The notes under the pieces are model-generated. The model made no database searches, was not told where the DNA came from, and saw only the letters and a list, made by a program, of their open reading frames with translations. Positions 15,117 to 58,156 of a stretch of 64,000 nucleotides of DNA are shown here, in pieces. The position numbers and the translations under genes were made by a program. The DNA lies in the NCBI GenBank assembly GCA_963663225.1, contig OY760142.1:195913-259912 (forward strand), in the 5' to 3' direction. The stretch's first letter is position 1, and the number at the start of each line of letters is the position of its first letter. The stretch is from Nitrospirota bacterium. Its GTDB lineage: Bacteria > Nitrospirota > UBA9217.

Positions 15117-15127
15117 TTCATGGTATT

Positions 15128-16273
15128 TCAGGATTTTTTGGCGATATATGCAGTCTGGCTGGGCAAACCGGCACTTCTAAATAGTTTTTTTGCTGAGCAT
15201 TTTATACGATATAAAATATTCGAGAGCGTACCATTTATTGTTTTGTTATAAAGAGTAACCGTAAACAAAGGACGGCCATCTTTGGTCCAGCCGCTTTTAT
15301 ATTCCTCGCTTCCCTGTAAGAAGTTATACTCTGTATTGCCGTTTTGAAAGGCTTCTTTGATTGCCTCAAATACAATAGCTTTGCCCGGTCCAAACCGCTC
15401 CCATTTTACGTCCATTCCCTTCTGATAGGAAAATATGCGTCCTTGATAGTTAAAATTATAAGAAGCGGCAATGACGTCTTTTTTGTTTCGCAAAAACCTC
15501 ATGGAAATCCAACCGGAGTTGTTTATGCGTTTTGACAAAGCCTTGTGGAATTCGAGAATCGCGGCATCATTAAAGGTGCTGCGGATTTTTTTTCTACTGG
15601 ATCTGCTCGCATGAATAGCAAACAAGGTATCAAATGCTTCAGGTTCGGCCAGCGGGTCACACGATTCATATGAGAAGCCCTGCGCTTCCAGTTTCTTTTT
15701 TCTGCTTTTCAGGTTGTATCTTTGTTTGGAATCAAGGGTATTTACAAAATCTTCAAAGCTGCCGTGCAACGGAATAAAGTAAGCGTAGGAATCCTGCCGG
15801 ATATTGTAACAGAGGCCGTTCCTGTAATCAGCGCGGTCCTGTTTAGTCCATGAAATAAAGTTGCTGCCCTCAGCAAACAGTCGCAAATCAAGAACGTCCC
15901 ATTCTCTATATTCAGAATACAGGAAATTACAGAGTGCTTCGATGCATGCTTTCGCGTTTTCTTTTGATGCAATAACATCAAGATGGTCAGGATACAGCTC
16001 CCTGCAGCCGCAATAGGTTAATACACGGCCGACAGTACATTCTCTGTTCAAACAAATATTATACGAAGCAAGCGGGAGTATGCCTTTAAGTTCGGAATCC
16101 TCATACACAAATAAAATGAGAGGCATATAGCTTTCACCAAACTGTTCCCACCAGGTATATATCCATTCCCAGGTGCAGAAGATTGATGGAATCGGCATCG
16201 AAGCCGCCAAACAGTTCCAGGCGTCCCTGCTGTTTTCGAATTCCTTCTCAGTTGCGATCTTTACTGTATACAT
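15128..16273 (-). CDS. FemAB-like / GNAT-fold acyltransferase, paralog 2 of 3
   Basis: 381 aa ORF; CTWEWIYTWWEQF N-terminal motif and EYNFLQGSEEYKSGW C-terminal motif, collinear with paralogs 1 and 3. Confidence 0.6.
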   Translation of the reverse strand: MYTVKIATEKEFENSRDAWNCLAASMPIPSIFCTWEWIYTWWEQFGESYMPLILFVYEDSELKGILPLASYNICLNRECTVGRVLTYCGCRELYPDHLDVIASKENAKACIEALCNFLYSEYREWDVLDLRLFAEGSNFISWTKQDRADYRNGLCYNIRQDSYAYFIPLHGSFEDFVNTLDSKQRYNLKSRKKKLEAQGFSYESCDPLAEPEAFDTLFAIHASRSSRKKIRSTFNDAAILEFHKALSKRINNSGWISMRFLRNKKDVIAASYNFNYQGRIFSYQKGMDVKWERFGPGKAIVFEAIKEAFQNGNTEYNFLQGSEEYKSGWTKDGRPLFTVTLYNKTINGTLSNILYRIKCSAKKLFRSAGLPSQTAYIAKKS

Positions 16274-17414
16274 TTTTTATCAGTTTCTTGCCCGGTTTAA
16301 TGACCCGTTGTGACAGGTAATGTACCGCCCTATTGGAGACGTTATTTTTCTTAATAAAAAGCGAGAAATTAAACCGAGTATTGTTTGCCCAGAAGTATTT
16401 ATATTTTTCATCGCCCCGGAGAAAATCAAACTCAGAACATCTCTCGGAAAAAGCTTTTTCGATCATCAGGGATAACAGAACCGTGCCCGCACTTTTTTCT
16501 TCCCCGTGCGCGGACAGTCCTGTTTGGTAATAGTAGTATTTGTTGTTGTACTTTATACAATAATAAAAAGCCTGATAAACCGACTCCTTCAGGAGAAAGG
16601 CAATAATTATTTTGTTTTCATTCAGTAAGTAGCCAACCAAGGATTCGTGGAAACTATAGACCTTGTCTCCTCTGAAGGCAGTCGGATAATTTTTTCTTTT
16701 TGCACGTTCCGCATGAAGCAAGAATAAAGTCTTCAGGTAGTGCTGCAGATTACCGGATTGGCTGTCCAGAATGCGGCATTTCCAGTTTTCCTTTTCCAGC
16801 AGATTTTTTTTCTTGCGCAGAAGTGTATTGCGTGTTTTTCCTGAAAAAGAACCGAGAAAGTCCTCAAAAGTTTTATCGATAGTCAGATAGGGGCAACGAG
16901 AGTCCGCGTTGCATTCAATGAGTAATTTTAGGAGCCCGTTTCGATGATCCGAAAGATACTTTTTTATGCAGGAGTTTTCATGCACGCCTTCCAGTGTTAT
17001 TTCATCCCATTCCATCTCATGCGTCTGTAGATAATCAAATACCAGCTTCGGGAAAAGGTGTTCAACTCTTCTATCGCAAAGAATGTCGAGATGATCGGGA
17101 GCAGTCTCGGAAGAGGAGCAGAATTTGACTGTATTGCGTCGGACACCGAAATATCTTTTTTTCTCGATATAAAACGGCGCAATCCCGACTAGTTGCCCTT
17201 GTGTGTCATAACCACAGACAATAAGTAGTTCTTTCTTTTCGTTTTTAAACGTATTCCACCAGGAAAACATCCACTCCCAAGACAAAAAGAATTCATTCGT
17301 AACGCTTCTGTTCAGGAGTTCGTTCCATTGTTCCCGCAGAAAAGTAAAATCTTTTTCCGAGAGCCGTTTTATAAAAAGAGATTTCACTTCTATGTCTGAC
17401 TTCGTTGTTATCAT
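16248..17414 (-). CDS. FemAB-like / GNAT-fold acyltransferase, paralog 3 of 3
   Basis: 388 aa ORF; LSWEWMFSWWNTF and EFDFLRGDEKYKYFW motifs. Overlaps paralog 2 by 26 nt. Confidence 0.6.
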   Translation of the reverse strand: MITTKSDIEVKSLFIKRLSEKDFTFLREQWNELLNRSVTNEFFLSWEWMFSWWNTFKNEKKELLIVCGYDTQGQLVGIAPFYIEKKRYFGVRRNTVKFCSSSETAPDHLDILCDRRVEHLFPKLVFDYLQTHEMEWDEITLEGVHENSCIKKYLSDHRNGLLKLLIECNADSRCPYLTIDKTFEDFLGSFSGKTRNTLLRKKKNLLEKENWKCRILDSQSGNLQHYLKTLFLLHAERAKRKNYPTAFRGDKVYSFHESLVGYLLNENKIIIAFLLKESVYQAFYYCIKYNNKYYYYQTGLSAHGEEKSAGTVLLSLMIEKAFSERCSEFDFLRGDEKYKYFWANNTRFNFSLFIKKNNVSNRAVHYLSQRVIKPGKKLIKNVYSKDRN

Positions 17415-17454
17415 GAGAATATCGCTATCGCCGCCTCTTTTGCGCTGTTGACGG

Positions 17455-18609
17455 TCAGTTTTCTCTGGTGAGAATTACCTGTTTAAAGATTGTCTCATAA
17501 TTTTCTATCATATGTTCCAGGCTGAATTTTTCTTCCACCCTTTTTTTTGCGGCCGTGCTGAACTGTTGCGCCGTTATCGGATCATCCAAGATGGACCAGA
17601 TGGCTTCCGCCAGCGCGTGGGAATCTCCGGGCGGGACCAAAAAACCCGTCTCACCCTGGACAACTGCTTCGGCATTGCCGCCGACCGTTGTTGCCACTAC
17701 CGGCTTGGAAGAAGCCATGTATTCCAAAATCGTGTTTGAAAAACCTTCACTTAATGAAGCCACAACGGCAACATCGAATATGGAAATTATTTCCGGAACA
17801 TCTCTGCGCCTTCCCAGAAAATGCACATTCCGGGAAACACCAAGTTTTTCGGCCATTGTCTGCATACTGCTGATTGAATAACCCATGTCAGTTGTATCAC
17901 TGCCGGCGATGAGAAACTCAACATCGGATCTTCTTTTGCAAATACGCGAAGCGGCCTCAATGAGATACGTAATGCCTTTTATGCGGCGAAGATTTGCGAC
18001 GAGTCCCACTACCGGATGAGCAGGGTCAATACCGATTTCTTTTTTAATATCTGAGCACGTTCTGCGGCACGTATTGTATTCCCGCAAATCAACTCCATTG
18101 TAAATCGAAACTATCCGTTTTTCAGGAAACCAGCCTTGTTTAACTATCTCCTGTTTGACTGCATCGCATACGGTTATCTCCCGATCAAAAAAACCACCGA
18201 TAAGTTTGTACGCCATCTTATGATGCGAGCGCGTTTTGAAGCCCATGTCTCTTCTGCTTGAAATAACCGGAATATTGCATGCTTTAGCAAGGATTAAGCC
18301 GTAAAAATCTGAAGTTTCGTGATACGTTACGATGAGCGAAATATTCTTATTTTTAATCAACCTGCGCAGAAAAAAGATATTTTTTATCCCATTGACAGTA
18401 TAGATCCCACCCCGCAAAAGGTCAAAGACTGAGTGGCCTTCTTCGCGCATTTCCTGAGCAAGCTGGCCGGAATAGATGCAAGCCATGTAAAGATTAAATT
18501 TCTCTTTATCAATACCTTTTAGCAGCTGTGTAATATTGCGTTCAGATCCCGCCATTCCCATGAACGTGTCAGTCAGGATCAGCACATTATATTTATTTGT
18601 CATTTCCAT
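17455..18609 (-). CDS. glycosyltransferase family 4
   Basis: 384 aa ORF; VVASLSEGFSNTILEYMASSKPVVATTVGGNAEAV GT4 signature. Confidence 0.8.
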   Translation of the reverse strand: MEMTNKYNVLILTDTFMGMAGSERNITQLLKGIDKEKFNLYMACIYSGQLAQEMREEGHSVFDLLRGGIYTVNGIKNIFFLRRLIKNKNISLIVTYHETSDFYGLILAKACNIPVISSRRDMGFKTRSHHKMAYKLIGGFFDREITVCDAVKQEIVKQGWFPEKRIVSIYNGVDLREYNTCRRTCSDIKKEIGIDPAHPVVGLVANLRRIKGITYLIEAASRICKRRSDVEFLIAGSDTTDMGYSISSMQTMAEKLGVSRNVHFLGRRRDVPEIISIFDVAVVASLSEGFSNTILEYMASSKPVVATTVGGNAEAVVQGETGFLVPPGDSHALAEAIWSILDDPITAQQFSTAAKKRVEEKFSLEHMIENYETIFKQVILTREN

Positions 18610-18633
18610 AATTTCAACACATTTTTAGCAAAA

Positions 18634-19332
18634 TTACTTTTCTTCTTGTTTTTTGTCTATGGTGTCTGGTTTTGTGCCAGATGATTCTTGGTTCGGTTTC
18701 GAGAAATCGACGGAAAGCAAATGACATTTTAAATCTTTTCTGAATGTTTTCGAGGCCATGATATCCTGCACTTCGAATTTATTCTTACCTTTAAATAAAT
18801 AGTCAAACTTCGTCAGGCCCTGTCGCTCCCATTCCATGAGGCATTTTTGCTTATATTTTTCTACTGTTGAAACACGTATTGCGGGATTTCCTATCATGAT
18901 ACTGCCCGGTTTTACATCGTTGATAACCGTAGCATAGGGGCCGATGATTGAATTTTTTCCAATTCTAACTCCGGCGGATATAGTAGCATGAGCTCCTATA
19001 AAGCAATTATCTTCTATGATGACTTTTCCAAAAAAACGTAAATGCGGGAGCTCGTCTCTGAAAATTACGCTCGCGCCGTCATGCGTCATGAGATCCACGC
19101 CATACGCTATGGAAACACTATCGCCGATTTCAACCAGATAAGGTTCTGAACTCAAGCTTCTAATTTGAAGAAAACAATTTTTCCCGACTATTGCGCCCTG
19201 TTTTCTGAATTTTTCTGCAATCGTAACGTCATTGTAGCGGAATCGTTCGTAAATTCTGTGAAGAATGTAAGCAACCATGTACAAGGGTGCGAGCAAAATT
19301 CTTAGCTTTTTACAGTACATAGACACCTGCAA
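18634..19332 (-). CDS. hexapeptide-repeat (left-handed beta-helix) acyl/acetyltransferase, paralog A
   Basis: 232 aa ORF; N-terminal hydrophobic helix; conserved block AEKFRKQGAIVGKNC...EPYLVEIGDSV...MTHDGASVIF...GKVIIEDNCFIGAHATI shared with 25990..26589 and 28749..29378. Confidence 0.7.
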   Translation of the reverse strand: MQVSMYCKKLRILLAPLYMVAYILHRIYERFRYNDVTIAEKFRKQGAIVGKNCFLQIRSLSSEPYLVEIGDSVSIAYGVDLMTHDGASVIFRDELPHLRFFGKVIIEDNCFIGAHATISAGVRIGKNSIIGPYATVINDVKPGSIMIGNPAIRVSTVEKYKQKCLMEWERQGLTKFDYLFKGKNKFEVQDIMASKTFRKDLKCHLLSVDFSKPNQESSGTKPDTIDKKQEEK

Positions 19333-19361
19333 TATCCATTAAATTTTTTACCGCAAACGCA

Positions 19362-20459
19362 CTATTTAACGTCGCAACGGAAATTTCCCGAATAATCCAC
19401 GCTACCATTTTTGGCGAGTACCACGAGGTTCATTTTTCTAAAACTCGGCACTAAACCCAGCGGTGCATAATCTTCAAAATTCAGATATGTTGCATTTTCA
19501 AATACTACTCCCTTCGCGTTCATCTCTTCCGCACGTTTTACGGCTTCATACAGGAGTGCTGCTATATGCGGCATGCTGCATTCTTTAAAAGGATTTACAA
19601 TCAGGAAGTCGACAACAATAAAAAATTGTGTTTTGCTTTCCTTGATCGTTTCTAACGGATAAAAATTTATAAAAGCGTTTATTTCACCATCGCGTTCTAC
19701 TACAAAAGTTCTGTGCGTGGGATGGCCAAAACAGTAGTGTTTGAGCTGATCTTCCGCCATGGTCAGCATAAAATGCGGTGCATCGGGAATTTTATTAAAC
19801 AATTGCGTCAACTGTCCGGCATCAGCTTCTTCTGCAATTCTTATTCTGGCAGAACCGGGCAACGGAGAATTGTCTTGCAGGTATTTTTTCAAACGTGCGG
19901 GCATGACTACACACTGGTTGAATGTTGAATAAGTTTTTCGCTTCACCTGAAAATATTTTGCCGACAGTTTATCACCTATGCTTTTTAATGGCTTTCCTTC
20001 TTCAATATAGGCAAATGTCGCGCTGCAGTCGGGCTCATAGAAATCTGCATCAGGGTGAAATAAATGAGTATGTTCGGCCAACTGCATTACACAATCCATC
20101 CTGTGGCGTAAATCAAGCCGGGGAGAAACTGCAAGGTGGGTGTTTAAATATGAATTCATTACATTCCCATTACAGATCATTTTTCTAGGGAGAAAACTCT
20201 GAAAGGCCACTAATTCATCATCAAGGAACGCTCCAAGAAGTATGTTTTTGTCAGTATTGGGTCCTCCATACAACCACAGTAAATAGTCCTGGGGAAATAC
20301 CGGGCTTCCTGTTTTGCCGTACAATTGGCTCCAGATAGAATTCAAAAATGTGCCTATTTTCTGCATTTCTTGCAATGAAAGACGCGAAAATTTCAGCAAT
20401 CGTTCATGCCGCAGCAATTTTATAAAAGAAGTAAGTGGTTGTCCGTTTTTAATTTGCAT
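19362..20459 (-). CDS. hypothetical protein (possible GNAT-like acyltransferase fold; function unknown)
   Basis: 365 aa ORF in operon context with no overlap conflicts. I recognise no diagnostic motif; the segment LLGAFLDDELVAFQSF is only weakly GNAT-like. Confidence 0.45.
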   Translation of the reverse strand: MQIKNGQPLTSFIKLLRHERLLKFSRLSLQEMQKIGTFLNSIWSQLYGKTGSPVFPQDYLLWLYGGPNTDKNILLGAFLDDELVAFQSFLPRKMICNGNVMNSYLNTHLAVSPRLDLRHRMDCVMQLAEHTHLFHPDADFYEPDCSATFAYIEEGKPLKSIGDKLSAKYFQVKRKTYSTFNQCVVMPARLKKYLQDNSPLPGSARIRIAEEADAGQLTQLFNKIPDAPHFMLTMAEDQLKHYCFGHPTHRTFVVERDGEINAFINFYPLETIKESKTQFFIVVDFLIVNPFKECSMPHIAALLYEAVKRAEEMNAKGVVFENATYLNFEDYAPLGLVPSFRKMNLVVLAKNGSVDYSGNFRCDVK

Positions 20460-20509: not shown

Positions 20510-22138
20510 CTATTTGTCCGACGTTCCGTAAACGCTGCTGAGCAGCGCTCTGTCTATTTTCTTGCTTTTATTTTTGGGAAGCTGTTCGAGTCTGACAAGA
20601 TGCTGCGGGATCATATATCGGGGCAGGCTCTTTTTCAGGTTGTGGTGAATCTCTTCATGGCAGTCCGCGGCCGCCTCGTAAACAAGTTTGAGTGACTTAA
20701 TTTCACCGTTTTCCCGGACCGGGATGACAACATTACCCGTCACTGAATCAACTTTTGAAACAACTCTCTCGATTTCCTGCAAATTGATTCGATATCCGAA
20801 AAATTTGATCTGACTGTCCTTGCGGCCATGGATGCAGTAGCCGACCCCGGGAATAAAAGACGCGACATCCCCGGTCCTGTAAAACGGCACCCCGTGCTCA
20901 TCCCTTCCAAAAACCTTGTTCGTTTTGTCAGGATCATTCCAATATCCGATAGACAAATGAGGAGAATGGACGATGAGCTCTCCTCGCTCTTCATTTTCCG
21001 GGAAGTCGGTTTTGTCAAGCGTGAAACGGATTCCCATGATCGGGAAACCGATGGGAACGGCGCCTCCGTCCTCGCCCTTGTAATCGTTCAGCGAGAAAAC
21101 AGCCATCAGTGACGATTCAGTAGATCCATAGCCGTTGATAAACTTTGCGTTGGGCAGCATGGCCATCACAGTTGCCAAAATATTCCGGTTGGCGGGTTCT
21201 CCGCCGAGCAAAACAGTTTTTAGCCCCTGAAGATGCTCCGGCTTGATCAGACCGCTGTTTACGAGAGCGTTCAGCGTCGAGGTGACCAGCAGCGTTCTGG
21301 TGACTTTGTACGTATATGTAAGGTCCAGAATGTCCTTCGGAAAAATTACTTCTTCTGGGTAAACAGCAAGTGTTCCACCTGAACACAGCGGTGGAAATAT
21401 GTCAGCGGTTGAGGCGGAGAATGCGGTTGCATTCAGCCCACTGGTCACGTCATCCACGTTATAACCCAGGGTATCGATCACCCACTGGACATTCTTGAAA
21501 ATATTGCCGTGGGGAATCATGACGCCTTTCGGCTCGCCGGTGGAGCCTGACGTGAAATAAATCATCGCCAGATCATTCGGCAAAAGGTCTACTTTTTGTG
21601 GATCATCCCGCCGCGCGCTTCCGAACGGCAATTTGACGAAATCGCGTTCTTCGCCATCGTCAAGCAGAACGGCCTGAAAACGCCCTGGAGATAGTTCCGC
21701 ACATTTTCTGAACAGGTCAGCTGAAAAGCGGTCGGCAAAAACGCGAAGCGGCGATATTTCAATCAATAAATCAGTCAGTCTGGCCGGCGGTGTTTTGGTG
21801 TCCAGAGGAACAACGACTCCTCCCGCTCTTATGATGCCGATCATGGCGGCATACAGATAGATTGACCTGTTCATCATGAGTGCGACACGATCGCCTTTTT
21901 TCAGACCACTCTCCTGCAGATACTGTGAAACATCGAGAGTCAGTTCGCGCAGTTCATGATAGGTCCATGCTTTGTCATACAGCCGTATCGCGGCTTTTGA
22001 TGCGTGCAAAGCAAACATCTTATCGAGCAGATCCATGATGGTAGAAACGGCTGATTGATTTTCTGCTTGTTTCTGGTTTATCGCGGTGTTTTTTTCCATG
22101 GGATTCTTTTTGACAATTGCATTGTCCTGAAGTTCCAT
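20510..22138 (-). CDS. adenylate-forming enzyme (AMP-dependent synthetase/ligase, acyl- or aminoacyl-activating), ligase 1
   Basis: Start placed at internal ATG (MELQDNAIV) 2 nt after the upstream stop. AMP-binding motifs YFTSGSTGEPKGV, GYGSTE and YRTGD are present. Confidence 0.8.
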   Translation of the reverse strand: MELQDNAIVKKNPMEKNTAINQKQAENQSAVSTIMDLLDKMFALHASKAAIRLYDKAWTYHELRELTLDVSQYLQESGLKKGDRVALMMNRSIYLYAAMIGIIRAGGVVVPLDTKTPPARLTDLLIEISPLRVFADRFSADLFRKCAELSPGRFQAVLLDDGEERDFVKLPFGSARRDDPQKVDLLPNDLAMIYFTSGSTGEPKGVMIPHGNIFKNVQWVIDTLGYNVDDVTSGLNATAFSASTADIFPPLCSGGTLAVYPEEVIFPKDILDLTYTYKVTRTLLVTSTLNALVNSGLIKPEHLQGLKTVLLGGEPANRNILATVMAMLPNAKFINGYGSTESSLMAVFSLNDYKGEDGGAVPIGFPIMGIRFTLDKTDFPENEERGELIVHSPHLSIGYWNDPDKTNKVFGRDEHGVPFYRTGDVASFIPGVGYCIHGRKDSQIKFFGYRINLQEIERVVSKVDSVTGNVVIPVRENGEIKSLKLVYEAAADCHEEIHHNLKKSLPRYMIPQHLVRLEQLPKNKSKKIDRALLSSVYGTSDK

Positions 22139-22142
22139 CGCT

Positions 22143-23354
22143 TTACACGACAATTTCAGCAGGCAGCGCGTGACTGAGAAAATGAAGCGGGCTTGCTGAA
22201 AAACCATATGCTCCTGAATTAAAGAAGAGGAGAACGTCGCCTTCCTCGATGTCGGCAGCCAGTTCAATATCAGTTGCCAATACATCGTCGGGAATGCAAA
22301 GGCTGCCGGTTATTGTGTACCTGATTTCAGCACCGGATTTTTCCTCTCCTGACAGTGTATCAATCTCGTAGTTACGCCGTATTACCTGTCCAATACCGCC
22401 GGCCGCCGCATAGTGTTGATGCATACCGCCGTCAACGACAAGAAATTCACGAGCGTAGCCCTTCTTGCGATACAACACGTGAACCGCGTAAAGCCCGCAT
22501 TCCGCCACCAGAAAGCGGCCTGGCTCGATGATGAACGTGGTGTTTCTGAGCGGAGCCGTAAGCTCTTCATCGGCAAAAAGTCTGGAGAGACCTTCCCTAA
22601 GCGCCGCAAGATCGAGCGGGGGTTTTTTCCCGAACATATCTATCCCCCAGCCGCCGCCAAAGTTTATTTTTTCGATGACAATTCCGTATTTGTTCGCAAT
22701 TTCGACGCTTTTTTCGAGAATAAAGCGATAATTGCTCAAAATCTTGTCTGATTCCTGATATTGTGAACCAAGATGCAGGTGCAGGCCCCGGAAGCGGAGC
22801 ATCTCCGGGTGGGATTTGATTACGGCAATGGCTTCCTCCAACTGGTCTTCAGGAATGCCGAACTGGGTATCTCCTCCCATCTTCATGGCTGAGGCCGCAG
22901 GACGCGTTTTGGGGTTTACCCTGATGCCCACGTTTCCGGCTTTCTTTTTTGCGCGGCAAAGTTTCGCTATCGTGTGTATTTCTGAAACGCTTTCAGCATT
23001 TATGCAGGAAACACCGGCATCGATCGCCTGCGATAATTCATCAAGGGTTTTTCCGGGACCGGTGAATTCTATGCTATCTGACGAAAATCCGGCAATCAGT
23101 GCCGCCGCGAGTTCCCCCCCCGAGGCCACGTCGGCACCCATGCCAAGTGCGTTCATTGTTCTTAAGATGTCATTATTGGGATTGGCCTTGAACGCATAAT
23201 GGATTTTGAAATGCTCTGGCAGACAATCTGACAGGTCACGATACTTTTTTTCAATGACCTTTTTAAAATAACAAAAAACCGGAAGCTTTCTCCCATCAAG
23301 AAAAGCGAGAAGTTCCGATTTTGGTATCAGCTTGTAAAATTCTTGCTTGTTCAT
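22143..23354 (-). CDS. PLP-dependent decarboxylase, Orn/DAP/Arg decarboxylase fold (diaminopimelate-decarboxylase-like)
   Basis: 403 aa ORF; HYAFKANPNNDILRTMNALGMGADVASGGEL and GLHLHLGSQ motifs. Confidence 0.8.
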   Translation of the reverse strand: MNKQEFYKLIPKSELLAFLDGRKLPVFCYFKKVIEKKYRDLSDCLPEHFKIHYAFKANPNNDILRTMNALGMGADVASGGELAAALIAGFSSDSIEFTGPGKTLDELSQAIDAGVSCINAESVSEIHTIAKLCRAKKKAGNVGIRVNPKTRPAASAMKMGGDTQFGIPEDQLEEAIAVIKSHPEMLRFRGLHLHLGSQYQESDKILSNYRFILEKSVEIANKYGIVIEKINFGGGWGIDMFGKKPPLDLAALREGLSRLFADEELTAPLRNTTFIIEPGRFLVAECGLYAVHVLYRKKGYAREFLVVDGGMHQHYAAAGGIGQVIRRNYEIDTLSGEEKSGAEIRYTITGSLCIPDDVLATDIELAADIEEGDVLLFFNSGAYGFSASPLHFLSHALPAEIVV

Positions 23355-24951
23355 ATTTGTTTTTTATTTCCGCGTATCGAACTTTGCCGTTTTCAGCCAG
23401 GGGCAGACTTTTCACAATGTTGATGTTGTCAGGCACCATATACGACGGCAGGCGTTCCTTCATATGTTTGATAAGGTCTTCTTTTTTTAGACCGTCACAG
23501 GAAATGATTTCCGCTATTATGTTGTGGCCTTTCCGATCATCCGGAATTCCCACTACCGCGCAGTGTGTCACTCCAGGATGTTCCAGAATGCAGCTTTCCA
23601 CTTCTTTGGGATAAATTCTGAATCCTGAGCTCTTGATCATTCCATCTTCACGTCCCAAAACATACAGAAAACCATCGCGGTCGATTTTTCCACGGTCACC
23701 GGTAAAAACCACCTTGCCCGCAGAGATCGTTGGCTTTAAACACGCGGGTATCTCTGCAAGTTTTTTCTGCGAACCAGCAACTTCATTGATATACCCAAGC
23801 ATGGTGCCAGCACCGTAATGAATTATTTCTCCTTCTTCGTCCGGGGATGCGATTTGGGTATTGTCTTTCAAAATAAAAATGCGAGTCCCCTTAACCGGAC
23901 GGCCTACCGATGTCATTTTACCATCATAGTCGTTCGCTTTTAATATGCCGCTTCTGAACGTTTCACTCTGCCCGTATGTTTTTATTATTTTCGTCCTCGG
24001 GAAATAATGCTTCAACTGTTCCAAATATTTTCGTGCGAGGTCTCCTCCGGAAACAGTGATGTATCGCAATGTTTTCGTATCTTCCGGGAAGCCGTCTTCT
24101 CGGGGAACAGAAAGCATATCGGCCCAGATGGTAGGCACTGCGGAAATCCCTGAGATATTAAATCGTTTGATTGCCGTTGCAATATCCCGTGGAAACCAGG
24201 AATTCAAAATAATAAGATGGGCGCCCGATAAAATGCTCGAAAAGAGCTGATTCAGTCCGACATCAAACGAAAAAGGCAGCAGGCTGAGCAAACAATCTTC
24301 CCTGTTAATTTCAAAATCTTCAATTTCTGTGGTGACTCTGACGTACAGATCGTCGCGATCGATTAACACACCCTTTTGCTCACCTGTCGATCCTGAAGTA
24401 AATAAGCAGTATCCGCGTTTTTTCTGGGAATTTGAGAATGGAGCATGTATCCGGGGATCGCCCATGCCGTCAATTGCTGCAGAAGCGCCGGATTGTTGAG
24501 ATTCCTGGACCCTGCGAGCCGGGATAAAATTCAAAAACTCGATTCCATCGCTACAAAGAGCAAACCGCATATTCGATGTAATAGCATCTTCAGACGACAT
24601 AATCTGCTTTACCGTGCTTCTGTTGAGAATGATAAATTTAGGTTTGGCAACTCTCGCCAATCTTATTACGTGAGGTGGCTTCAGCCTCGAATTCAATGAA
24701 CAGGCGGCGCCGCCGGCCAAAATGGCACCAAGAATGGTTACTGCTGCATCGATGGACTTGTTCATGTAACTAGCAACCAGATCATTCGGCTGCATCCCCT
24801 CTCTGGTAAAGAAGTCTGCAACTTCTTTTACTTTTCGAGCCAGCATGCCATAGGTCAGGGTTTGGAGTGTTCCCCCGGGCAAACAGTGGGAAATCGCAGC
24901 TTTGTCATTGTGTCGCGCAAATGCCTGCTCTATGCGTCGGGAAAGAATCAA
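23296..24951 (-). CDS. adenylate-forming enzyme (AMP-dependent synthetase/ligase), ligase 2
   Basis: 551 aa ORF; LFTSGSTGEQKGV, YGQSE and FTGDRG motifs. The first codon appears to be TTG, overlapping the stop of the upstream carrier-protein gene. Confidence 0.75.
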   Translation of the reverse strand: MILSRRIEQAFARHNDKAAISHCLPGGTLQTLTYGMLARKVKEVADFFTREGMQPNDLVASYMNKSIDAAVTILGAILAGGAACSLNSRLKPPHVIRLARVAKPKFIILNRSTVKQIMSSEDAITSNMRFALCSDGIEFLNFIPARRVQESQQSGASAAIDGMGDPRIHAPFSNSQKKRGYCLFTSGSTGEQKGVLIDRDDLYVRVTTEIEDFEINREDCLLSLLPFSFDVGLNQLFSSILSGAHLIILNSWFPRDIATAIKRFNISGISAVPTIWADMLSVPREDGFPEDTKTLRYITVSGGDLARKYLEQLKHYFPRTKIIKTYGQSETFRSGILKANDYDGKMTSVGRPVKGTRIFILKDNTQIASPDEEGEIIHYGAGTMLGYINEVAGSQKKLAEIPACLKPTISAGKVVFTGDRGKIDRDGFLYVLGREDGMIKSSGFRIYPKEVESCILEHPGVTHCAVVGIPDDRKGHNIIAEIISCDGLKKEDLIKHMKERLPSYMVPDNINIVKSLPLAENGKVRYAEIKNKYEQARILQADTKIGTSRFS

Positions 24952-25220
24952 GCTTCATCTCCCGCCAATTTCTTTTCAATAAAATACGATATTTTGCTTA
25001 TGGAGTCGAAATTGTCCAAAGAAAGTTCCGCCGGATAAAAAATAACGTCAAATTTCTCTGAAAAAGCCTCAATAATCTGGATTGCTCCGAGAGAGTCGAT
25101 TAGCCCGCTGTCGATCAGCGAATCCTCTTCACCAATACTAGTACCACTCCCATTGCCATCCTTTGCGGCAATCTCTGTTATTATTTGTTTAACCGCTCCT
25201 TTTATTTCTGCTAACTCCAT
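24948..25220 (-). CDS. acyl/peptidyl carrier protein (phosphopantetheine-binding)
   Basis: 90 aa ORF; carrier-protein serine motif GLIDSLGAIQIIE; GGGGGG RBS-like run 8-13 nt upstream of the ATG. Confidence 0.75.
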   Translation of the reverse strand: MELAEIKGAVKQIITEIAAKDGNGSGTSIGEEDSLIDSGLIDSLGAIQIIEAFSEKFDVIFYPAELSLDNFDSISKISYFIEKKLAGDEA

Positions 25221-25282: not shown

Positions 25283-25993
25283 TTACCTTTGCAGGAGATC
25301 CCGCAAGAGGTTATCCAGTATCTCATACGCTTTTTGGTTTAAGTGTGTTCCGTCTCCACTGTTTAACTCATCACGAAGAGAACGCTCGCGGTCGCTTTTC
25401 CGTAATGCAGCCTCGAGGTCAATCAGCGTGATTTTCTCTTTTTTGGCGTAATCCCGAATCCAGTCATTGTAGGCCAAAATGCCTTCTATTTTGCCTTGCA
25501 CAGCCTCCGCGCGTGCGCGTGTAACAGGGACAACGGTCGCCAATATCACCTCTACGCGCGCGTCACGAATCCGCTTGACCCATTTTTGCACCAGTTCCTG
25601 CTGAAGGGCGATGTCGCCTGGAAAATAGGACGAACATTCTTTAATAACAATAATGTTCGGCAACACGGGTGACGGCCGGAAAAAACCCTTTATGTATGAC
25701 AGCGTAAAGTGAAACTTTCTTTTCGGACGCATCAGGATTTCATCGATTGCTTCCGTTTTATCAAACTGATACACCGCTATAAATTCGACGCTATGAGCGC
25801 GGTCACCCGTCCGCTGGGAATACTCTGCAAGTTTCCATGCCTTCCCGATGGAAGCCCCGACAAACATCACGTTTTTTTTGGAGGCATCCGCTTTACCCTG
25901 ATCCTGGATTTGCGTACAACCGGTCAGCACAAGCAAGCCTGCCGCTACAACGAAGAATATTTTTTTTACGGCCTTAATCATAGAGAACCTCAC
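25283..25993 (-). CDS. lipoprotein, putative SGNH/GDSL-type hydrolase
   Basis: 236 aa ORF; signal peptide with lipobox (LVLTGCTQ); C-terminal SGDGTHLNQKAYEIL resembles the SGNH block V (DGxH). Block I is not canonical. Confidence 0.5.
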   Translation of the reverse strand: MRFSMIKAVKKIFFVVAAGLLVLTGCTQIQDQGKADASKKNVMFVGASIGKAWKLAEYSQRTGDRAHSVEFIAVYQFDKTEAIDEILMRPKRKFHFTLSYIKGFFRPSPVLPNIIVIKECSSYFPGDIALQQELVQKWVKRIRDARVEVILATVVPVTRARAEAVQGKIEGILAYNDWIRDYAKKEKITLIDLEAALRKSDRERSLRDELNSGDGTHLNQKAYEILDNLLRDLLQR

Positions 25994-26615: not shown

Positions 26616-28700
26616 CTAGTTTACAGCGTGTGCGTGAGCACGGTCGCTTTCGTCTGCCGTTAAAATGAGATCAACCAGCTCTTTTCTGGTTTCCTCAAAA
26701 AAATCTGGAGTCCATTCCGATTCTCCATCCTGACGACAGACTGGTTCTCCGGATTTGCCTCGGATTCTTGAGAAAAAGTCTTCATAACGGGAAGTGTCTA
26801 TTCCTTTCCGCTTCAATACAGAAACCCGCTTTACAAGCTGATACAGCAGCTTATGGTCATTAATCCCCTCGCGGATTGCTTCCCATTTGAGCGTCGGCAC
26901 CGGACCGGACGGAGCTGGATAGGCCAGATACAGATCGTGCCCCGGTGTATCCGCCTTTTCCGGGAGGCCGCTTGCATTCTGCGTATTCTGAAATGTCCAG
27001 GATGACATTCCGTCAATGTTCTTCATCCACGTGTAATATCCGTACACATACCGTGCATAGGCGGGATTATCACATTGAGTAGTTATATTATTATTGTATA
27101 TCCAGTAACGTGAACCATTTTGATGGGCGGCCTGCATCTCGTGTTCATTCATTTCCGCAGAGCACAGATAATCAACCGGCGAGAACTGATCGTATCGAAG
27201 AGACGTAAGCATTGTTTTTCCACCCGACTCTTTTACGGCCTTAAGCAGCACGGGCGTTACAGCATATCGTTTCTTCTGTAAATCCTGCTGTGAATCATCC
27301 GGTTCATCGATAGGTAAAAATATGACCGGTGGGCAGTGATTTTCTTTTGCAAATTCCGTAACTGTTCTGACAAGATGACGTAGACGCTCCTCGTGTACTT
27401 TTTGATCAAAACCTTTTATGTTTCCCGGATGCTTCGGTTTGGCAGTTTGGATAAGATGTCCCATATACCAGATGACAGGCTTTGTAAATCCGGTGTCTCG
27501 TGCCGCGAGAAGAGCGGCGAAAACATCGTCCAGAACCAGGGTGCCGTCATCCCGGGTAAGAGCGACGAAGGGAGAATGGATTGAAAGCGTAGTCATGCCA
27601 TGCTCTCTATAGTTTTTCAAAACTGCTCGCGCCGAGCGCCGGAGTTCGTTCTTCTCTTTCTCATTCCATGGAAAGACAAGCTCCGTAAATTCGTACGTCA
27701 TGAGCATGAAATAGTCTTTATCCGGGATATCTTCTGTAATAATGGGGAGAACCATAATCTGGAGCGGTATTGTTTTACTCTTCCCATATTGCGGCAAAAC
27801 CGTTATTGTTCCCGTGTACTTGCCCGGCAGAACGGATTGATCAATTTTTGCTGTTAGCCAGAAACGGCAATGACCTCCTTTTTTAACGGAAGTCTTGCTC
27901 TTAGATCTGATCAGGGCAGGGAGCCGCCTGAATTCTCCTGGCGGGAGGCCTGTCGAATCCTCTACTGATTCGACAACCCCGATTTTAATTTTTTCTTTTG
28001 CGATGGTCCCCTGCGGGCCGTTCAAATCTTCAATTGCTAATTTTACCGTTCCGAGGTTCCTGCTAGAAAATAAGGAAATACTGATTGGAAGATATATATT
28101 TCGTGCCGTCCGTATTGATATTTCGCGAATGCTTTCCGCCGCTTCCGGCACCGTCCCCGGATATTCATAGAGTAGCGGAGACCGCAAAAAAACAACATAG
28201 CCGTCGGGGAAATCGACATCATTCGTTTTTATCTTCGCGGATTCATTCCGTAACGGCATCTCACGGTAGGCGATGGGAGTATGTATCCGTTCGGAATCGT
28301 TATAGTTCCTCAGCTCGGATTGCAATACAGACTGGGTAATAAAAACCGTGAAGATCCGTTGATCGTCTGCGGCCTCCAGCTGAATGTCGTATTTCCCTTC
28401 AGACAACGGGGATGGAAGATCGAAAAGAAGATTGCCGTTTTTCTCCCGTACCAGTATGGTCTGTGCCTGTGCAATAATATTGCCGTCCCGACAAAGAGTT
28501 CCTTTGACCTTCAGCCGGTCAATATGCTCCGCACCGCCAGAAACAGTAAACGCAGCATAAAGCGCTTTCTTCAGCTGAACTTGGTCAAGCACCGCTACTC
28601 TATCCCGAAGAATTAGAGAATCTATATGGATTGATTTTGTTTTGCAGGCTGGGCAAAGAACAGCAACGACAAGAGCAAATATCCCAAGAAGTCTTTTCAC
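26616..28700 (-). CDS. large secreted lipoprotein, function unknown (possibly a glycan-active enzyme)
   Basis: 694 aa ORF with signal peptide and lipobox (ALVVAVLCPACK); aromatic-rich; no motif I can assign. Confidence 0.55.
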   Translation of the reverse strand: MKRLLGIFALVVAVLCPACKTKSIHIDSLILRDRVAVLDQVQLKKALYAAFTVSGGAEHIDRLKVKGTLCRDGNIIAQAQTILVREKNGNLLFDLPSPLSEGKYDIQLEAADDQRIFTVFITQSVLQSELRNYNDSERIHTPIAYREMPLRNESAKIKTNDVDFPDGYVVFLRSPLLYEYPGTVPEAAESIREISIRTARNIYLPISISLFSSRNLGTVKLAIEDLNGPQGTIAKEKIKIGVVESVEDSTGLPPGEFRRLPALIRSKSKTSVKKGGHCRFWLTAKIDQSVLPGKYTGTITVLPQYGKSKTIPLQIMVLPIITEDIPDKDYFMLMTYEFTELVFPWNEKEKNELRRSARAVLKNYREHGMTTLSIHSPFVALTRDDGTLVLDDVFAALLAARDTGFTKPVIWYMGHLIQTAKPKHPGNIKGFDQKVHEERLRHLVRTVTEFAKENHCPPVIFLPIDEPDDSQQDLQKKRYAVTPVLLKAVKESGGKTMLTSLRYDQFSPVDYLCSAEMNEHEMQAAHQNGSRYWIYNNNITTQCDNPAYARYVYGYYTWMKNIDGMSSWTFQNTQNASGLPEKADTPGHDLYLAYPAPSGPVPTLKWEAIREGINDHKLLYQLVKRVSVLKRKGIDTSRYEDFFSRIRGKSGEPVCRQDGESEWTPDFFEETRKELVDLILTADESDRAHAHAVN

Positions 28701-29423: not shown

Positions 29424-30443
29424 CTATAATCCCAGTTTCTTTTTTGCGTTATTTATAAACGCCAACTCCGGATCGGAGTATATTTTTTGATACCCGTCTT
29501 CCCTTGTCATTACTCCGTCCCGGACCATGTTGGCGATTTCCCACACGTACGGGTGAAAACCATGGCGTTTCAGATGGACATCATTCCCGAAGGCATTGAG
29601 AAGACAGTTCGTGGAATTGCTGTCCGTGTCCTGAGGCGCCGTCCACCCGAATTCTCCGATCTGTTCAACCAGTGTTCCTTCGTGGTAAAACTCCCAGGCC
29701 ATGGGGTGAACGTTATAGGGGAACCGTTCCTGCATGGCGAAATGCTTCTCATTCAGAAAATATGATTCGATATCGGTTCCAGCCACTTCGCGCAGCGGAT
29801 TCAGGACCGCTTCCTGCGACATTTTGACGAGTGACGGATTCGTTCTCATAATCGAGGACTGCACCGGCGCCTGTCCAGGCGACCACCCGTATCCGATCAT
29901 GGGTATTTCCTGTTCAATGGCTGTTTTCAAACAGTATGACTTCACAATAGCCATACACGAGGTACAGATGGTACTTGCTCGTTCAAGCGTTTTTTTCGAA
30001 TATAGATCGCGGTCTGCTGCAACTGCAAAAATTTTTTTCAAAATGTCCCAGCGCGGTTTGAAAAAAATATGGTCCACATTCAACCGATCAGTCACCCGCC
30101 GAATGTTCGCCACGGCCGTCTCGGACACGAACCCGTTGTCCAGACTGACTGCCAGCACCCGCAGTCGGTATTTGTTTTTGAGCAGACTCATGGTGTAGGT
30201 CGAGTCTTTCCCGCCGCTATATGCCATCAAAATATCATAGGATCGGCGCCGGGCTGCCGGTCCTCCTGTCTGCTCCAGTAAATCCAGGAACTTCCGTTCA
30301 TATCTTTTTTTGTCTTCGGCGTGTTTTTTTTCCTTTCCGGCGGCCTGCTGGCAGTGCACGCAAACACCGGCTTCATCAAAACTGATGCCGGGAAAGGTTC
30401 CCGGCAATATGCAGCGCGTACAAACGGTTATATTAGATGACAT
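29424..30443 (-). CDS. N-acetyl sugar amidotransferase-like PP-loop ATPase (WbuX/PseA-like)
   Basis: Start at internal ATG (MSSNITVCTRC). N-terminal zinc-ribbon cysteines CTRC...CVHC followed by PP-loop motif YSGGKDS. Confidence 0.65.
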   Translation of the reverse strand: MSSNITVCTRCILPGTFPGISFDEAGVCVHCQQAAGKEKKHAEDKKRYERKFLDLLEQTGGPAARRRSYDILMAYSGGKDSTYTMSLLKNKYRLRVLAVSLDNGFVSETAVANIRRVTDRLNVDHIFFKPRWDILKKIFAVAADRDLYSKKTLERASTICTSCMAIVKSYCLKTAIEQEIPMIGYGWSPGQAPVQSSIMRTNPSLVKMSQEAVLNPLREVAGTDIESYFLNEKHFAMQERFPYNVHPMAWEFYHEGTLVEQIGEFGWTAPQDTDSNSTNCLLNAFGNDVHLKRHGFHPYVWEIANMVRDGVMTREDGYQKIYSDPELAFINNAKKKLGL

Positions 30444-31305
30444 GGTTTGCAGTCCTTTTCTTCGTGGCCCGTATTGCTCGTATTTTGTCTCCATCTTTGA
30501 AATACTCGATATTCTGATAACCGCCGCTTTTTTCGATTACTCGGGTGACCAGGGTCTCCTGCCGTTCACCGATTTCAAAGAGCAGGACTCCGTCCGGCTT
30601 CAGCAACGGCTGCGCATCTGTGATCAGCCGGCGGTAGATGTTAATCCCGTATGGCCCGCCGTCAAGCGCGACGAGCGGCTCATGGTCAATAATTTCGGCA
30701 GACAGTTTGCTGAGTGAGCTTGTCGGTATATAAGGCGGATTACATACGATGCAGTCTATATTTTCTTCGTATTCCACTCCTGCATAAGGCGCGAACAGGT
30801 CTCCGACCGCGAGAGAAATCCTGTCCTCGAGCTTGAACTTTGCCACGTTCCGGCGGGCTATCTCCACCGCGGCAGAACTGATGTCACTGGCCAGAACCGA
30901 TACCTGTTGTGCCTGCAGGGCAATGGATACTGCGATGTTTCCGCAGCCGGTTCCTACTTCGATCAGCGTGAGGGTCTTGCCGGCAGATTCTTTTTTACAC
31001 AGCGATTCAAGAACTGCGTTCACTAATACTCTGGTTTCATCGGTCGGAATCAGCGTATCCGGAGTGCAGAAAAACATGCGTCCCATAAAATGCGCTTTAC
31101 CGAGAATATACTCCCAGGGCATTCCTTTTTTCCTTTTTTGAATCGCAAGTTCAAGATTGATCTGTTCCCCCTCCGCATGCGTTAAGGTCGCTCCCCGCAG
31201 CGCGCCGCTCGACAGCAGGTCAAAAAGGCGCAAAGTCTCGTAAAGAGAGTTTTCCGTGCCGGCTTGTTCAATCAAAGTATAACTGCGTAAAAAATCATGG
31301 AACAT
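30433..31305 (-). CDS. HemK/PrmC-family SAM-dependent methyltransferase (NPPY-type)
   Basis: 290 aa ORF; SAM-binding LIEVGTGCGNIAV and catalytic CNPPYIP motif. Confidence 0.7.
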   Translation of the reverse strand: MFHDFLRSYTLIEQAGTENSLYETLRLFDLLSSGALRGATLTHAEGEQINLELAIQKRKKGMPWEYILGKAHFMGRMFFCTPDTLIPTDETRVLVNAVLESLCKKESAGKTLTLIEVGTGCGNIAVSIALQAQQVSVLASDISSAAVEIARRNVAKFKLEDRISLAVGDLFAPYAGVEYEENIDCIVCNPPYIPTSSLSKLSAEIIDHEPLVALDGGPYGINIYRRLITDAQPLLKPDGVLLFEIGERQETLVTRVIEKSGGYQNIEYFKDGDKIRAIRATKKRTANHVI

Positions 31306-32870: not shown

Positions 32871-33142
32871 CAGGCGTTTTGGACCGCAACCGGTCCCGTA
32901 CTTGCTTTTTTGGCGACAAAATCGGCGAGCTTGCCGATGGAATCAAAGTTATCGGGTATTATTTCATCATCGGTTACGGCGAACCCGAATTTCTCTTCGA
33001 CAAAGGACACTAGTTCGAGCACGCCGGTTGAGTCGATAATGCCTTTTTCCAGAAAAGAGACCTCGTCGGTCAGTGTATGGTCATCCTGACCATATAAAAA
33101 GTTTTCTATGACAAAGGCTCTGATTACATCTTTCTGTTGCAT
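32870..33142 (-). CDS. acyl/peptidyl carrier protein (phosphopantetheine-binding), second copy
   Basis: Start at internal ATG (MQQKDVIRAF) with GGGGGAG RBS 7 nt upstream; carrier serine motif GIIDSTGVLELVSF. The longer ORF-track start at 33232 lacks this support. Confidence 0.7.
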   Translation of the reverse strand: MQQKDVIRAFVIENFLYGQDDHTLTDEVSFLEKGIIDSTGVLELVSFVEEKFGFAVTDDEIIPDNFDSIGKLADFVAKKASTGPVAVQNA

Positions 33143-49249: not shown

Positions 49250-49260
49250 GGTTTTCAGCC

Positions 49261-51030: not shown

Positions 51031-51043
51031 GGTTAACCTCGCC

Positions 51044-58072: not shown

Positions 58073-58156
58073 ATATACCAACAACACCGGCGAGAGGGAC
58101 AGAGAATCACGCCCTCCTCATGGCGGCGTTAGCGGAATATTCTGGTAATCAATCGC

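Follow-up and report, generated by a model that had tools for sequence, protein, structure and literature searches.

A putative carrier-protein cassette for decarboxylated aminoacyl groups within an exopolysaccharide operon of a Nitrospirota bacterium

We describe here a four-gene cassette (positions 20510-25220, minus strand) located inside the 40-gene exopolysaccharide (EPS) operon of a Nitrospirota bacterium, in a 64,000-nucleotide stretch of contig OY760142.1 (hereafter the window). It encodes an acyl carrier protein (ACP1), an adenylate-forming enzyme (ligase 2), a decarboxylase dependent on pyridoxal phosphate (PLP) and a second adenylate-forming enzyme (ligase 1). With moderate confidence, we favour a role for this cassette as a carrier-protein pathway without condensation domains that would make an activated decarboxylated aminoacyl substituent for the EPS, and we infer that a capped beta-alanyl or gamma-aminobutyrate (GABA)-type group may be placed on an amino sugar of the polymer. 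A preliminary description of the window had suggested that the polysaccharide or an associated protein receives, by way of a thioester, an acyl or aminoacyl group that could be a decarboxylated amino acid; the idea of such a delivery to the polysaccharide gains support from homology and synteny. By profile scores, the cassette is a diverged relative of two catalogued families associated with exosortase A (XrtA), TIGR03098 and TIGR03099, both of which are hypothetical equivalogs. The four genes lie where they had been placed and in the same order, and each passes Pfam gathering thresholds; solely the start of ligase 1 had to be moved, from 22285 to the ATG at 22138. Pfam and NCBIfam scans of the ~40 operon proteins revealed no condensation domain, as also anticipated, and no other nonribosomal peptide synthetase (NRPS) module. 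No MBOAT, AT3 or thioesterase was found among the same proteins.

The decarboxylase

The 403-aa decarboxylase (22143-23354, minus strand; Orn_Arg_deC_N, 151 bits, plus Orn_DAP_Arg_deC) is a fold-type III PLP enzyme whose top match by a wide margin, among all PDB sequences, is BtrK (7ru7 and 2j66; 270 bits over residues 12-402, ~38% identity). BtrK, designated there as 'L-glutamyl-[BtrI acyl-carrier protein] decarboxylase', acts solely on carrier-tethered glutamate. True diaminopimelate (DAP) decarboxylases do not exceed 150 bits in this comparison and ornithine or lysine decarboxylases 69 bits, and the window decarboxylase does not belong to the lysine pathway. LysA (TIGR01048) was likewise rejected as an identity, with 248.1 bits for a cutoff of 297.9 and a far closer kinship to BtrK than to DAP decarboxylases. 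Among NCBIfam models, the best one is TIGR03099 (dCO2ase_PEP1; 353.4 bits, below its cutoff of 478.45), and the reverse scan with a BtrK sequence rebuilt from the printed alignment also placed TIGR03099 on top (379 bits, versus 265 for lysA). In a neighbour-joining tree of 78 members, which are only 33-49% identical to the window decarboxylase, BtrK nests inside the family and shares 29-41% identity with its members. Moreover, across an alignment of 15 homologues, neither the PLP lysine K56 nor any other catalytic position varies. The reciprocal TIGR03099 match and the nesting of BtrK indicate that the XrtA-associated decarboxylases, BtrK and the window enzyme belong to one family. On the basis of this kinship, we propose that the window decarboxylase would act on aminoacyl-S-ACP1.

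Carrier proteins and their ligases

ACP1 (24948-25220, minus strand) is a 90-aa stand-alone carrier with a phosphopantetheine serine in GLIDSLGAIQII and a Pfam PP-binding score of 26.6 bits for a cutoff of 20.8. Its closest curated or solved relatives are DltC and peptidyl carrier proteins, with weak matches (E 2e-6 to 2e-4). Directly downstream, the 551-aa ligase 2 (23296-24951, minus strand; AMP-binding, 193 bits, plus AMP-binding_C) starts with a TTG that is overlapped by the ACP1 stop over 4 nt (GCTTGA), and its own 3' end overlaps the decarboxylase gene by 59 nt. The top NCBIfam family of ligase 2 is TIGR03098 (ligase_PEP_1; 345.2 bits, below the cutoff of 592.35) and its closest stand-alone solved structure is 3wvn (130 bits), which we take to be VinN.

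A second carrier-ligase pair had been noticed at 31320-33142, and this pair is indeed formed by ACP2 and ligase 3. ACP2 (32870-33142, minus strand; PP-binding, 21.3 bits) is 90 aa long when read from the ATG at 33142, a start picked by the strong GGGGGAG Shine-Dalgarno sequence ahead of it, and carries its serine in GIIDSTGVLELV. Its top family is an ornithine-lipid ACP (57 bits, below cutoff), and ACP2-like carriers are found before ligase_PEP_1-type ligases in many loci. The 516-aa ligase 3 (31320-32870, minus strand) is adenylate-forming and the strongest TIGR03098 match of the window (492.4 bits for the same cutoff of 592.35), yet it has no adjoining decarboxylase. As described earlier, the carrier gene sits immediately upstream of a ligase gene in both pairs; the ACP2 stop overlaps the ATG of ligase 3, and, given the stop-start overlaps of ACP1/ligase 2 and ACP2/ligase 3, both pairs are translationally coupled.

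The substrates of these ligases may be approached through two residues of adenylation domains, Asp235 and Lys517. In studies by Conti in 1997 and Stachelhaus in 1999, Asp235 is said to bind the amino group of the substrate. Equivalents of both residues are present in ligase 2 (FSFDVG and ENGK, in a HMMER alignment to LgrA adenylation domains), and ligase 3 has them as well. Among ligases encoded beside decarboxylase homologues, a MAFFT alignment showed the Asp235 equivalent in 18 of 19 enzymes of the ligase 2 type and in all 33 of the ligase 3 type, with Lys517 present throughout. Since Asp235 is kept, these 'acyl-CoA ligase-like' enzymes look like amino-acid activators. Ligase 2 is proposed, from these sequence features, to load an acidic amino acid onto ACP1. 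The ACP2-ligase 3 pair would be a second loader from the same family as the canonical triad of carrier, ligase and decarboxylase. It would provide the single decarboxylase with a second substrate or else deliver an acyl or aminoacyl group that is not decarboxylated.

Ligase 1

Ligase 1 (20510-22138, minus strand; AMP-binding, 228 bits) is a 542-aa NRPS-type stand-alone adenylation enzyme. Its ATG at 22138 lies 4 nt past the decarboxylase stop; the 591-aa open reading frame (ORF) from 22285 is too long, and the exact 542-aa product is recorded as a called gene in the protein collection. The enzyme displays all core motifs and reaches 275 bits on AA-adenyl-dom, below cutoff, and 173.6 bits on TIGR03098. 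Its closest solved relatives are NRPS adenylation (A) domains and DltA. The comparison with DltA that had been called for placed it far below the cutoffs of the two DltA models (216 and 209 bits for cutoffs of 476 and 560). Orthologues of ligase 1 form a discrete group at 46-52% identity, with a sharp fall to 31% outside, and are confined, in the loci surveyed below, to those with a decarboxylase at least 60% identical to that of the window.

In the window enzyme and its 94% identical twin, the Asp235 position is occupied by a serine (AFSAST, aligned with FDGS and FDIS in LgrA), while 39 of 41 orthologues of ligase 1 and all 80 more distant A enzymes have the Asp. The hypothesis that the ligase 1 family activates non-amino acids was ruled out as a generalisation by this 39/41 count. 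The same alignment makes an alpha-amino acid the probable substrate of the family taken as a whole, with a possible switch, in the window lineage, to an acid that lacks the alpha-amino group. The loss of Asp235 implies either that the analogy with VinM of the vicenistatin pathway is imperfect here or that the enzyme has changed substrate. We propose that ligase 1 acylates the amine freed by decarboxylation, in a VinM-like manner, or loads a second unit.

Proposed pathway

Precedents for such a sequence of reactions come from secondary metabolism. In the butirosin, closthioamide and fluvirucin pathways (BtrJ/I/K, CtaD/E/F and FlvN/L/O, respectively), glutamate or aspartate is attached to an ACP by its side-chain carboxyl and then alpha-decarboxylated on the carrier to give GABA or beta-alanine (PMC11350588). 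During vicenistatin biosynthesis, 3-methylaspartate is loaded on VinL by VinN and VinO decarboxylates the thioester form only; VinM, a second adenylation enzyme, then aminoacylates the freed amine and VinK transfers the resulting dipeptidyl group (PMC11284099). The window set (one ACP, a loader, a BtrK-like decarboxylase and a second A enzyme) matches this four-part Vin logic, from which we derive a pathway of four steps.

In step 1, as predicted from homology, an acidic alpha-amino acid (most likely aspartate or glutamate) would be adenylated by ligase 2 at the side-chain carboxyl and bound as a thioester to holo-ACP1. In step 2, which is the best supported one, the BtrK-like decarboxylase would remove the alpha-carboxyl group on the carrier to yield beta-alanyl- or gamma-aminobutyryl-S-ACP1. 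Both steps draw on homology, motifs and synteny, and the case for them is moderately strong. Steps 3 and 4 are what we infer beyond this point. In step 3, which is more weakly supported, ligase 1 would activate a second acid and cap the freed omega-amine, a reaction known from VinM and BtrJ. Most orthologues would use an alpha-amino acid for this purpose, and the Asp235-to-Ser exchange suggests an acid without an alpha-amino group in the window. In step 4, fold and synteny designate the tandem GNAT and/or the hexapeptide acyltransferase encoded downstream as candidates to move the group from ACP1 to the amino group of a nucleotide- or lipid-linked amino sugar, and the companion GT4 glycosyltransferase would finally insert the modified sugar into the repeat unit. 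Given that no MBOAT is encoded in the window, the transfer is here probably cytoplasmic.

Conservation across genomes

Species representatives of GTDB were scanned with a decarboxylase alignment, which yielded 80 loci (designated by L numbers) whose ORFs were labelled by BLAST against the window proteins. In the 54 evaluable loci, with at least 3 kb on each side of the decarboxylase gene, features were counted within 6 kb of it. An AMP-ligase was found in 39 of them and a BLAST-detectable carrier protein in at least 33, a lower bound; an MBOAT accompanies the decarboxylase in 10 loci, a small GNAT in six, a ligase 1 orthologue in three and the 365-aa tandem GNAT in two. The phosphopantetheine serine, within (L/I)DS, is kept in all 40 carriers recovered beside decarboxylase homologues. 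The cassette arrangement is not due to chance: in metagenome-assembled genomes (MAGs) of Thermodesulfobacteriota, Nitrospirota and deltaproteobacteria, the encoded proteins are 43-68% identical and keep the order ACP-ligase-decarboxylase-ligase-(tandem GNAT)-hexapeptide transferase-GT4. The module is thus not restricted to the four genes first delineated: these stand, and the conserved run continues with the tandem GNAT, the hexapeptide acyltransferase and GT4 (17455-20459).

The loci fall into three layers of increasing divergence. The first one (decarboxylase at least 60% identical; L001, L004, L005 and L017) comprises Nitrospirota, Thermodesulfobacteriota and 'delta' MAGs and shows the full order ACP1, ligase 2, decarboxylase, ligase 1, (365-aa protein), hexapeptide transferase and GT4, usually with a GH123-like protein first. 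The nearest named relative, L004, is an uncultured Nitrospiraceae MAG (86-98% identity). In the second layer (40-49% identity; Syntrophaceae, Acidobacteriota, Methylophilaceae, Gemmatimonadales, KSB1 and others), an ACP, a ligase 2-type enzyme and the decarboxylase are found without ligase 1; a DltB-like MBOAT takes its place (TIGR04091, 175-189 bits; Pfam MBOAT, 76-86 bits), often together with a small GNAT. Such MBOATs stand beside the triad in L006-L013, L022, L023, L040, L046 and L081, along with a Wzy_C protein in L007, and point to delivery of the group to an envelope polymer. The third layer (33-42% identity; Desulfobacula, Scalindua, Sphingomonas, Margulisiibacteriota and others) combines an ACP2-like carrier, a ligase 3-type enzyme and the decarboxylase, often with AsnB-like amidotransferases nearby. 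It includes a bona fide TIGR03099 member (L025; decarboxylase, 531.7 bits; ligase, 582 bits) with a carrier upstream.

In the clade that holds BtrK, the AMP-ligase is absent and, in a Paenibacillus locus (L058), an ATP-grasp enzyme is encoded directly upstream of the decarboxylase, in the same position as BtrJ. The invariant core is composed of the carrier and the decarboxylase, and the loader is interchangeable. A constant carrier and decarboxylase combined with a swappable loader are as expected if the substrate of the decarboxylase is tethered to the carrier. Across phyla, the triad is surrounded by flippases, Wzy-like proteins, glycosyltransferases and chain-length regulators.

Relation to known systems

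Compared with the butirosin system, the window encodes a full-length BtrK homologue with a stand-alone carrier and an ATP-dependent loader adjoining, and butirosin biosynthesis also delivers an omega-aminoacyl group that is finally N-linked to an amino sugar-like scaffold (PMC11350588). However, the loader is of the ANL type in the window instead of the ATP-grasp BtrJ, there is no counterpart of the BtrO/V hydroxylase, the BtrH transferase or the BtrG deprotecting enzyme, and the genes are part of an EPS operon in an anaerobe-like genome instead of an aminoglycoside cluster. The vicenistatin and fluvirucin systems (VinN/L/O/M and FlvN/L/O/M), together with CtaD/E/F of closthioamide, share with the window the set of one ACP, a loader, a PLP decarboxylase and a second adenylation enzyme (PMC11284099, PMC11350588); this likeness concerns the gene inventory, VinO, VinM and FlvO being compared by description only. 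In contrast to these clusters, Pfam and NCBIfam scans of the operon proteins detected no polyketide synthase (PKS), no VinK-type dipeptidyl transacylase and no VinJ-type aminopeptidase; the transferases are here the tandem GNAT and the hexapeptide acyltransferase, and the window ligase 1 has a Ser at Asp235. By analogy, the window proteins would work most like the Vin, Flv and Btr cassettes.

The kinship to the XrtA-associated families is of another kind. Among curated families, ligases 2 and 3 score best on TIGR03098 and the decarboxylase on TIGR03099, and the locus type is also similar, with five XrtA/PEP-CTERM EPS proteins above cutoff. The TIGR03099 family is described as having a TIGR03098-type ligase adjoining, and in the window ligase 2, whose best family is TIGR03098, is encoded directly upstream of the decarboxylase and overlaps it. 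Nevertheless, all three window proteins remain below the trusted cutoffs, the better TIGR03098 match (ligase 3) stands apart from the decarboxylase, and ligase 1, the tandem GNAT, the hexapeptide transferase and GT4 are specific to the window clade. Furthermore, Pfam/NCBIfam scans and a tail check revealed no exosortase and no PEP-CTERM protein or tail within the 64 kb.

The preliminary description had drawn a loose analogy with Dlt. In Dlt, and as proposed for the window, a stand-alone adenylating enzyme loads a small carrier and the aminoacyl group modifies an envelope glycopolymer; the glycine addition to lipid A by AlmEFG likewise involves an adenylating enzyme and a small carrier. The DltB-like MBOAT of the sister loci speaks for this analogy, but Btr, Vin, Flv and Cta are the closest mechanistic precedents. 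Dlt includes neither a decarboxylation step nor a second ligase and the window has neither an MBOAT nor DltD. On the DltC model, ACP1 reaches 27.6 bits for a cutoff of 68, which parallels the low DltA score of ligase 1. As the window proteins score below the cutoffs of TIGR03098, TIGR03099, DltA, DltC and LysA, we assign them to none of these families.

Alternative explanations

Several observations weigh against a carrier-bound decarboxylation pathway dedicated to the EPS. Ligases 2 and 3 also resemble acyl-CoA ligases: they reach 247 and 417 bits, respectively, on PRK06187 ('long-chain-fatty-acid-CoA ligase'; cutoff 476) and TIGR03098 itself is named 'acyl-CoA ligase'. They are also too distant from trained specificity predictors for an amino-acid assignment. 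The carrier matches are weak (21-27 bits), the neighbour-joining tree is midpoint-rooted and bears no support values, the window ligase 1 lacks Asp235, and the tandem GNAT is missing from L005 and L017. In addition, no phosphopantetheinyl transferase, VinK-type or BtrH-type transferase or deprotecting peptidase was recognised in the operon.

A first alternative is based on ordinary coenzyme A (CoA) chemistry, in which the ligases would make acyl-CoAs or directly amidate uronic acids, free DAP, ornithine or lysine would be decarboxylated to an amine with an amide linkage to the polymer and the carriers would serve an unrelated acylation. The acyl-CoA ligase annotation and the PRK06187 scores are in its favour, as are the 248 bits that the decarboxylase still reaches on lysA and the amide/amidine chemistry used in the operon by AsnB-like and WbuX amidotransferases. 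However, the decarboxylase remains below the lysA cutoff, and its score with BtrK is close to double that with any DAP, ornithine or lysine decarboxylase. An adjoining carrier with an invariant serine, translationally coupled to its ligase, recurs across phyla, and the ligase can be exchanged for an ATP-grasp enzyme with the carrier and decarboxylase held constant. The requirement of VinO for the thioester form (PMC11284099) argues in the same direction, and we judge this alternative improbable. A Dlt-type extracytoplasmic O-aminoacylation, where a membrane acyltransferase would receive the carrier-bound group and form an ester on the finished polymer with the help of a DltD/PatB-like SGNH lipoprotein, would account for the DltB-like MBOATs flanking the triad in sister loci and for the presence of DltC among the nearest named relatives of ACP1. 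The SGNH protein encoded beside ACP1 even combines a lipoprotein signal with GxSxG and DxxH motifs that are both intact, but it is conserved only in very close relatives. Since the scanned operon genes of the window include no MBOAT or AT3 and its clade has cytoplasmic-type transferases instead (tandem GNAT and hexapeptide acyltransferase), such a route is likely for the MBOAT-bearing sister clades and less likely for the window locus, where it is given a low probability as the general explanation.

Finally, the cassette could be embedded only physically in the EPS operon, its product being an independent small molecule (a lipo-amino acid, for instance, or else an N-acyl amine or siderophore-like compound). 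All the characterised precedents that we found (Btr, Vin, Flv and Cta) are indeed secondary-metabolite pathways (PMC11350588, PMC11284099), the best family of ACP2 is the ornithine-lipid ACP, and the L001 locus continues downstream, after a few genes, with those for an HMG-CoA synthase and a MaoC dehydratase. Against this, the cassette genes are contiguous or overlapping with the adjoining ones and belong to a single co-directional operon that contains no PKS, NRPS or efflux genes, their tightest co-conserved partners are GT4 and a sugar-type hexapeptide acyltransferase, and the polysaccharide-assembly neighbourhood recurs across phyla, which makes this the least probable of the alternatives and a very unlikely one. 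Altogether, the kinship to BtrK, an invariant carrier that is translationally coupled to its ligase and the presence of sugar enzymes as partners are less consistent with the three alternatives than with a carrier-bound route to an EPS substituent.

Significance

On-carrier decarboxylation of aspartate or glutamate has so far been documented only in antibiotic pathways (butirosin, vicenistatin, fluvirucin and closthioamide). No published function was found for the XrtA-associated ligase/decarboxylase pair, and linking it to this chemistry gives the pair a concrete and testable activity. The literature searched contained no publication connecting the triad to polysaccharides, exosortase systems or MBOATs, and the triad genes are not mentioned in Haft 2006. 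The predicted omega-aminoacyl group, perhaps N-capped, would be a new EPS substituent that, in many environmental phyla, adds positive charge to the polymers of biofilm matrices or masks it. As for the MBOAT-bearing sister loci, of which no description was found, they would be, if this holds true, Gram-negative counterparts of Dlt with an extra decarboxylation step.

A broader speculation, which we consider rather unlikely as a whole, is that the triad defines a large phylum-spanning class of glycopolymer aminoacylation systems (present in Nitrospirota, Thermodesulfobacteriota, Acidobacteriota, Methylophilaceae, Scalindua, Sphingomonas, KSB1, Omnitrophota and others) that install omega-aminoacyl groups of the beta-alanyl or GABA type, and that the amine serves in XrtA loci as the exosortase acceptor nucleophile for PEP-CTERM proteins. 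By analogy with the Fem-built cross-bridge used by sortase, this acceptor amine could be extended by ligase 1 and three FemAB-like GNATs (13989-17414). If the amine is the exosortase acceptor, it would address the question of what PEP-CTERM proteins are attached to.

Flanking partner genes

The gene that follows ligase 1 (19362-20459, minus strand) encodes a 365-aa protein for which a confident structure model displays an N-myristoyltransferase-like fold. According to this model, the protein is a two-lobed tandem GNAT N-acyltransferase, with acyl groups that exceed acetyl in size carried by its closest relatives in structure, and it is a candidate for the transfer of the carrier-bound group to an amine acceptor. 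It also follows ligase 1 in L001 and L004 but, being absent from L005 and L017, is ruled out as the universal transferase. Between the window and L004, it is unusually diverged (70% identity, versus ~93% for its neighbours). Taken together with the Ser at Asp235 of ligase 1, this divergence may reflect a recent change of substituent.

The hexapeptide-repeat acyltransferase (18634-19332, minus strand; left-handed beta-helix, Hexapep Pfam, weak match to the NeuD/PglB/VioB family) is the best-conserved partner of the module, with 62-68% identity and a maintained position in L001, L005, L017 and L030. GT4 (17455-18609, minus strand), which scores 172 bits on the PEP-CTERM/XrtA glycosyltransferase model TIGR03088, below cutoff, is syntenic in the same four loci at 51-58% identity. 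Both are more constant partners than the tandem GNAT. Three paralogous Acetyltransf_6 (FemAB-like GNAT) genes stand in tandem just after the module (13989-17414, minus strand; 375-388 aa) and show a weak BspF match and otherwise no NCBIfam family, with one homologue in L001; they could extend a peptide-like side chain. In this Thermodesulfobacteriota locus (L001), genes for an HMG-CoA synthase and a MaoC/FAS1-type dehydratase are located just downstream of the module GT4 (16084-17875 of that locus). HMG-CoA synthase homologues often use carrier-bound substrates.

On the other side of the cassette, the SGNH/GDSL-type hydrolase (25283-25993, minus strand; Lipase_GDSL_2, 37 bits; lipoprotein signal LLVLTGC; GASIG and DGTH motifs) is shared by L004 and L019 only, the very close relatives, and its membership of the module is doubtful. 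A core DltD-like function was rejected for it, as the L001 protein at the same position is unrelated. Further upstream lies a gene for a 694-aa GH123-N-like protein (26616-28700, minus strand; weak GH123_N matches) with an N-terminal hydrophobic signal-like segment. It is 61-62% identical to its counterparts in L005 and L017, where it directly precedes the cassette, and the L001 counterpart combines GH123_N and GH123_cat. This protein may be an EPS-processing glycosidase.

Operon setting

From ~43200 down to position 3, the window ORFs are all on the minus strand and abut or overlap their neighbours, and thus constitute a single long operon. At its head is an XrtA/PEP-CTERM-type EPS assembly set in which five minus-strand proteins exceed curated NCBIfam cutoffs: the ATPase TIGR03015 (400 bits for a cutoff of 324), the export protein TIGR03027, the chain-length determinant TIGR03007, the tyrosine autokinase TIGR03018 and the outer-membrane protein TIGR03016. 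This set is preceded by an UpxY-family (NusG-like) antiterminator (128 bits for a cutoff of 100) and followed by an epimerase, an AsnB-like amidotransferase, ACP2, ligase 3, a PrmC/HemK-like methyltransferase and a WbuX amidotransferase. Hexapeptide acyltransferases, the GH123-N-like protein and the SGNH lipoprotein come next and lead to the cassette, after which the 365-aa protein, the further hexapeptide acyltransferase, GT4 and the three Acetyltransf_6 genes are found. The tail encodes glycosyltransferases, deacetylases, a flippase, a Wzy/O-antigen-ligase-like protein, a formyltransferase, a PseC/ArnB-type aminotransferase and a priming sugar-phosphate transferase. The many N-modifying enzymes of the operon (the aminotransferase, the formyltransferase, three deacetylases, three hexapeptide transferases, WbuX and the AsnB-like enzyme) fit with a heavily N-derivatised amino-sugar polymer.

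Some features of the surroundings deserve mention. A 140-aa protein with a degenerate response-regulator receiver domain is encoded just upstream of the UpxY antiterminator gene (42778-43200 and 41114-41767, respectively, minus strand). The HemK/PrmC-type N5-glutamine methyltransferase (30433-31305, minus strand) scores 208 bits for a PrmC equivalog cutoff of 199; it directly follows ligase 3 and keeps this position in L004 and L019, an odd site for a release-factor methyltransferase. Upstream of the EPS operon (45698-51601, minus strand), a 1183-aa fusion of 2Fe-2S, pyridine-nucleotide-disulphide oxidoreductase and molybdopterin oxidoreductase domains is followed by NuoF-like and NuoE-like subunits and resembles an NAD(P)H-linked formate dehydrogenase/hydrogenase-type complex typical of anaerobes. 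A PrsK/PrsR identity was rejected for the two-component pair at 53674-56906, which scored below the PEP-CTERM regulator cutoff. Finally, two plus-strand ORFs of 225 and 272 aa (57395-58975) have no family matches, and the second one ends with an HNH-like CxxC...H motif (CPTCHRKLH); this pair might be a small defence or restriction-type island.

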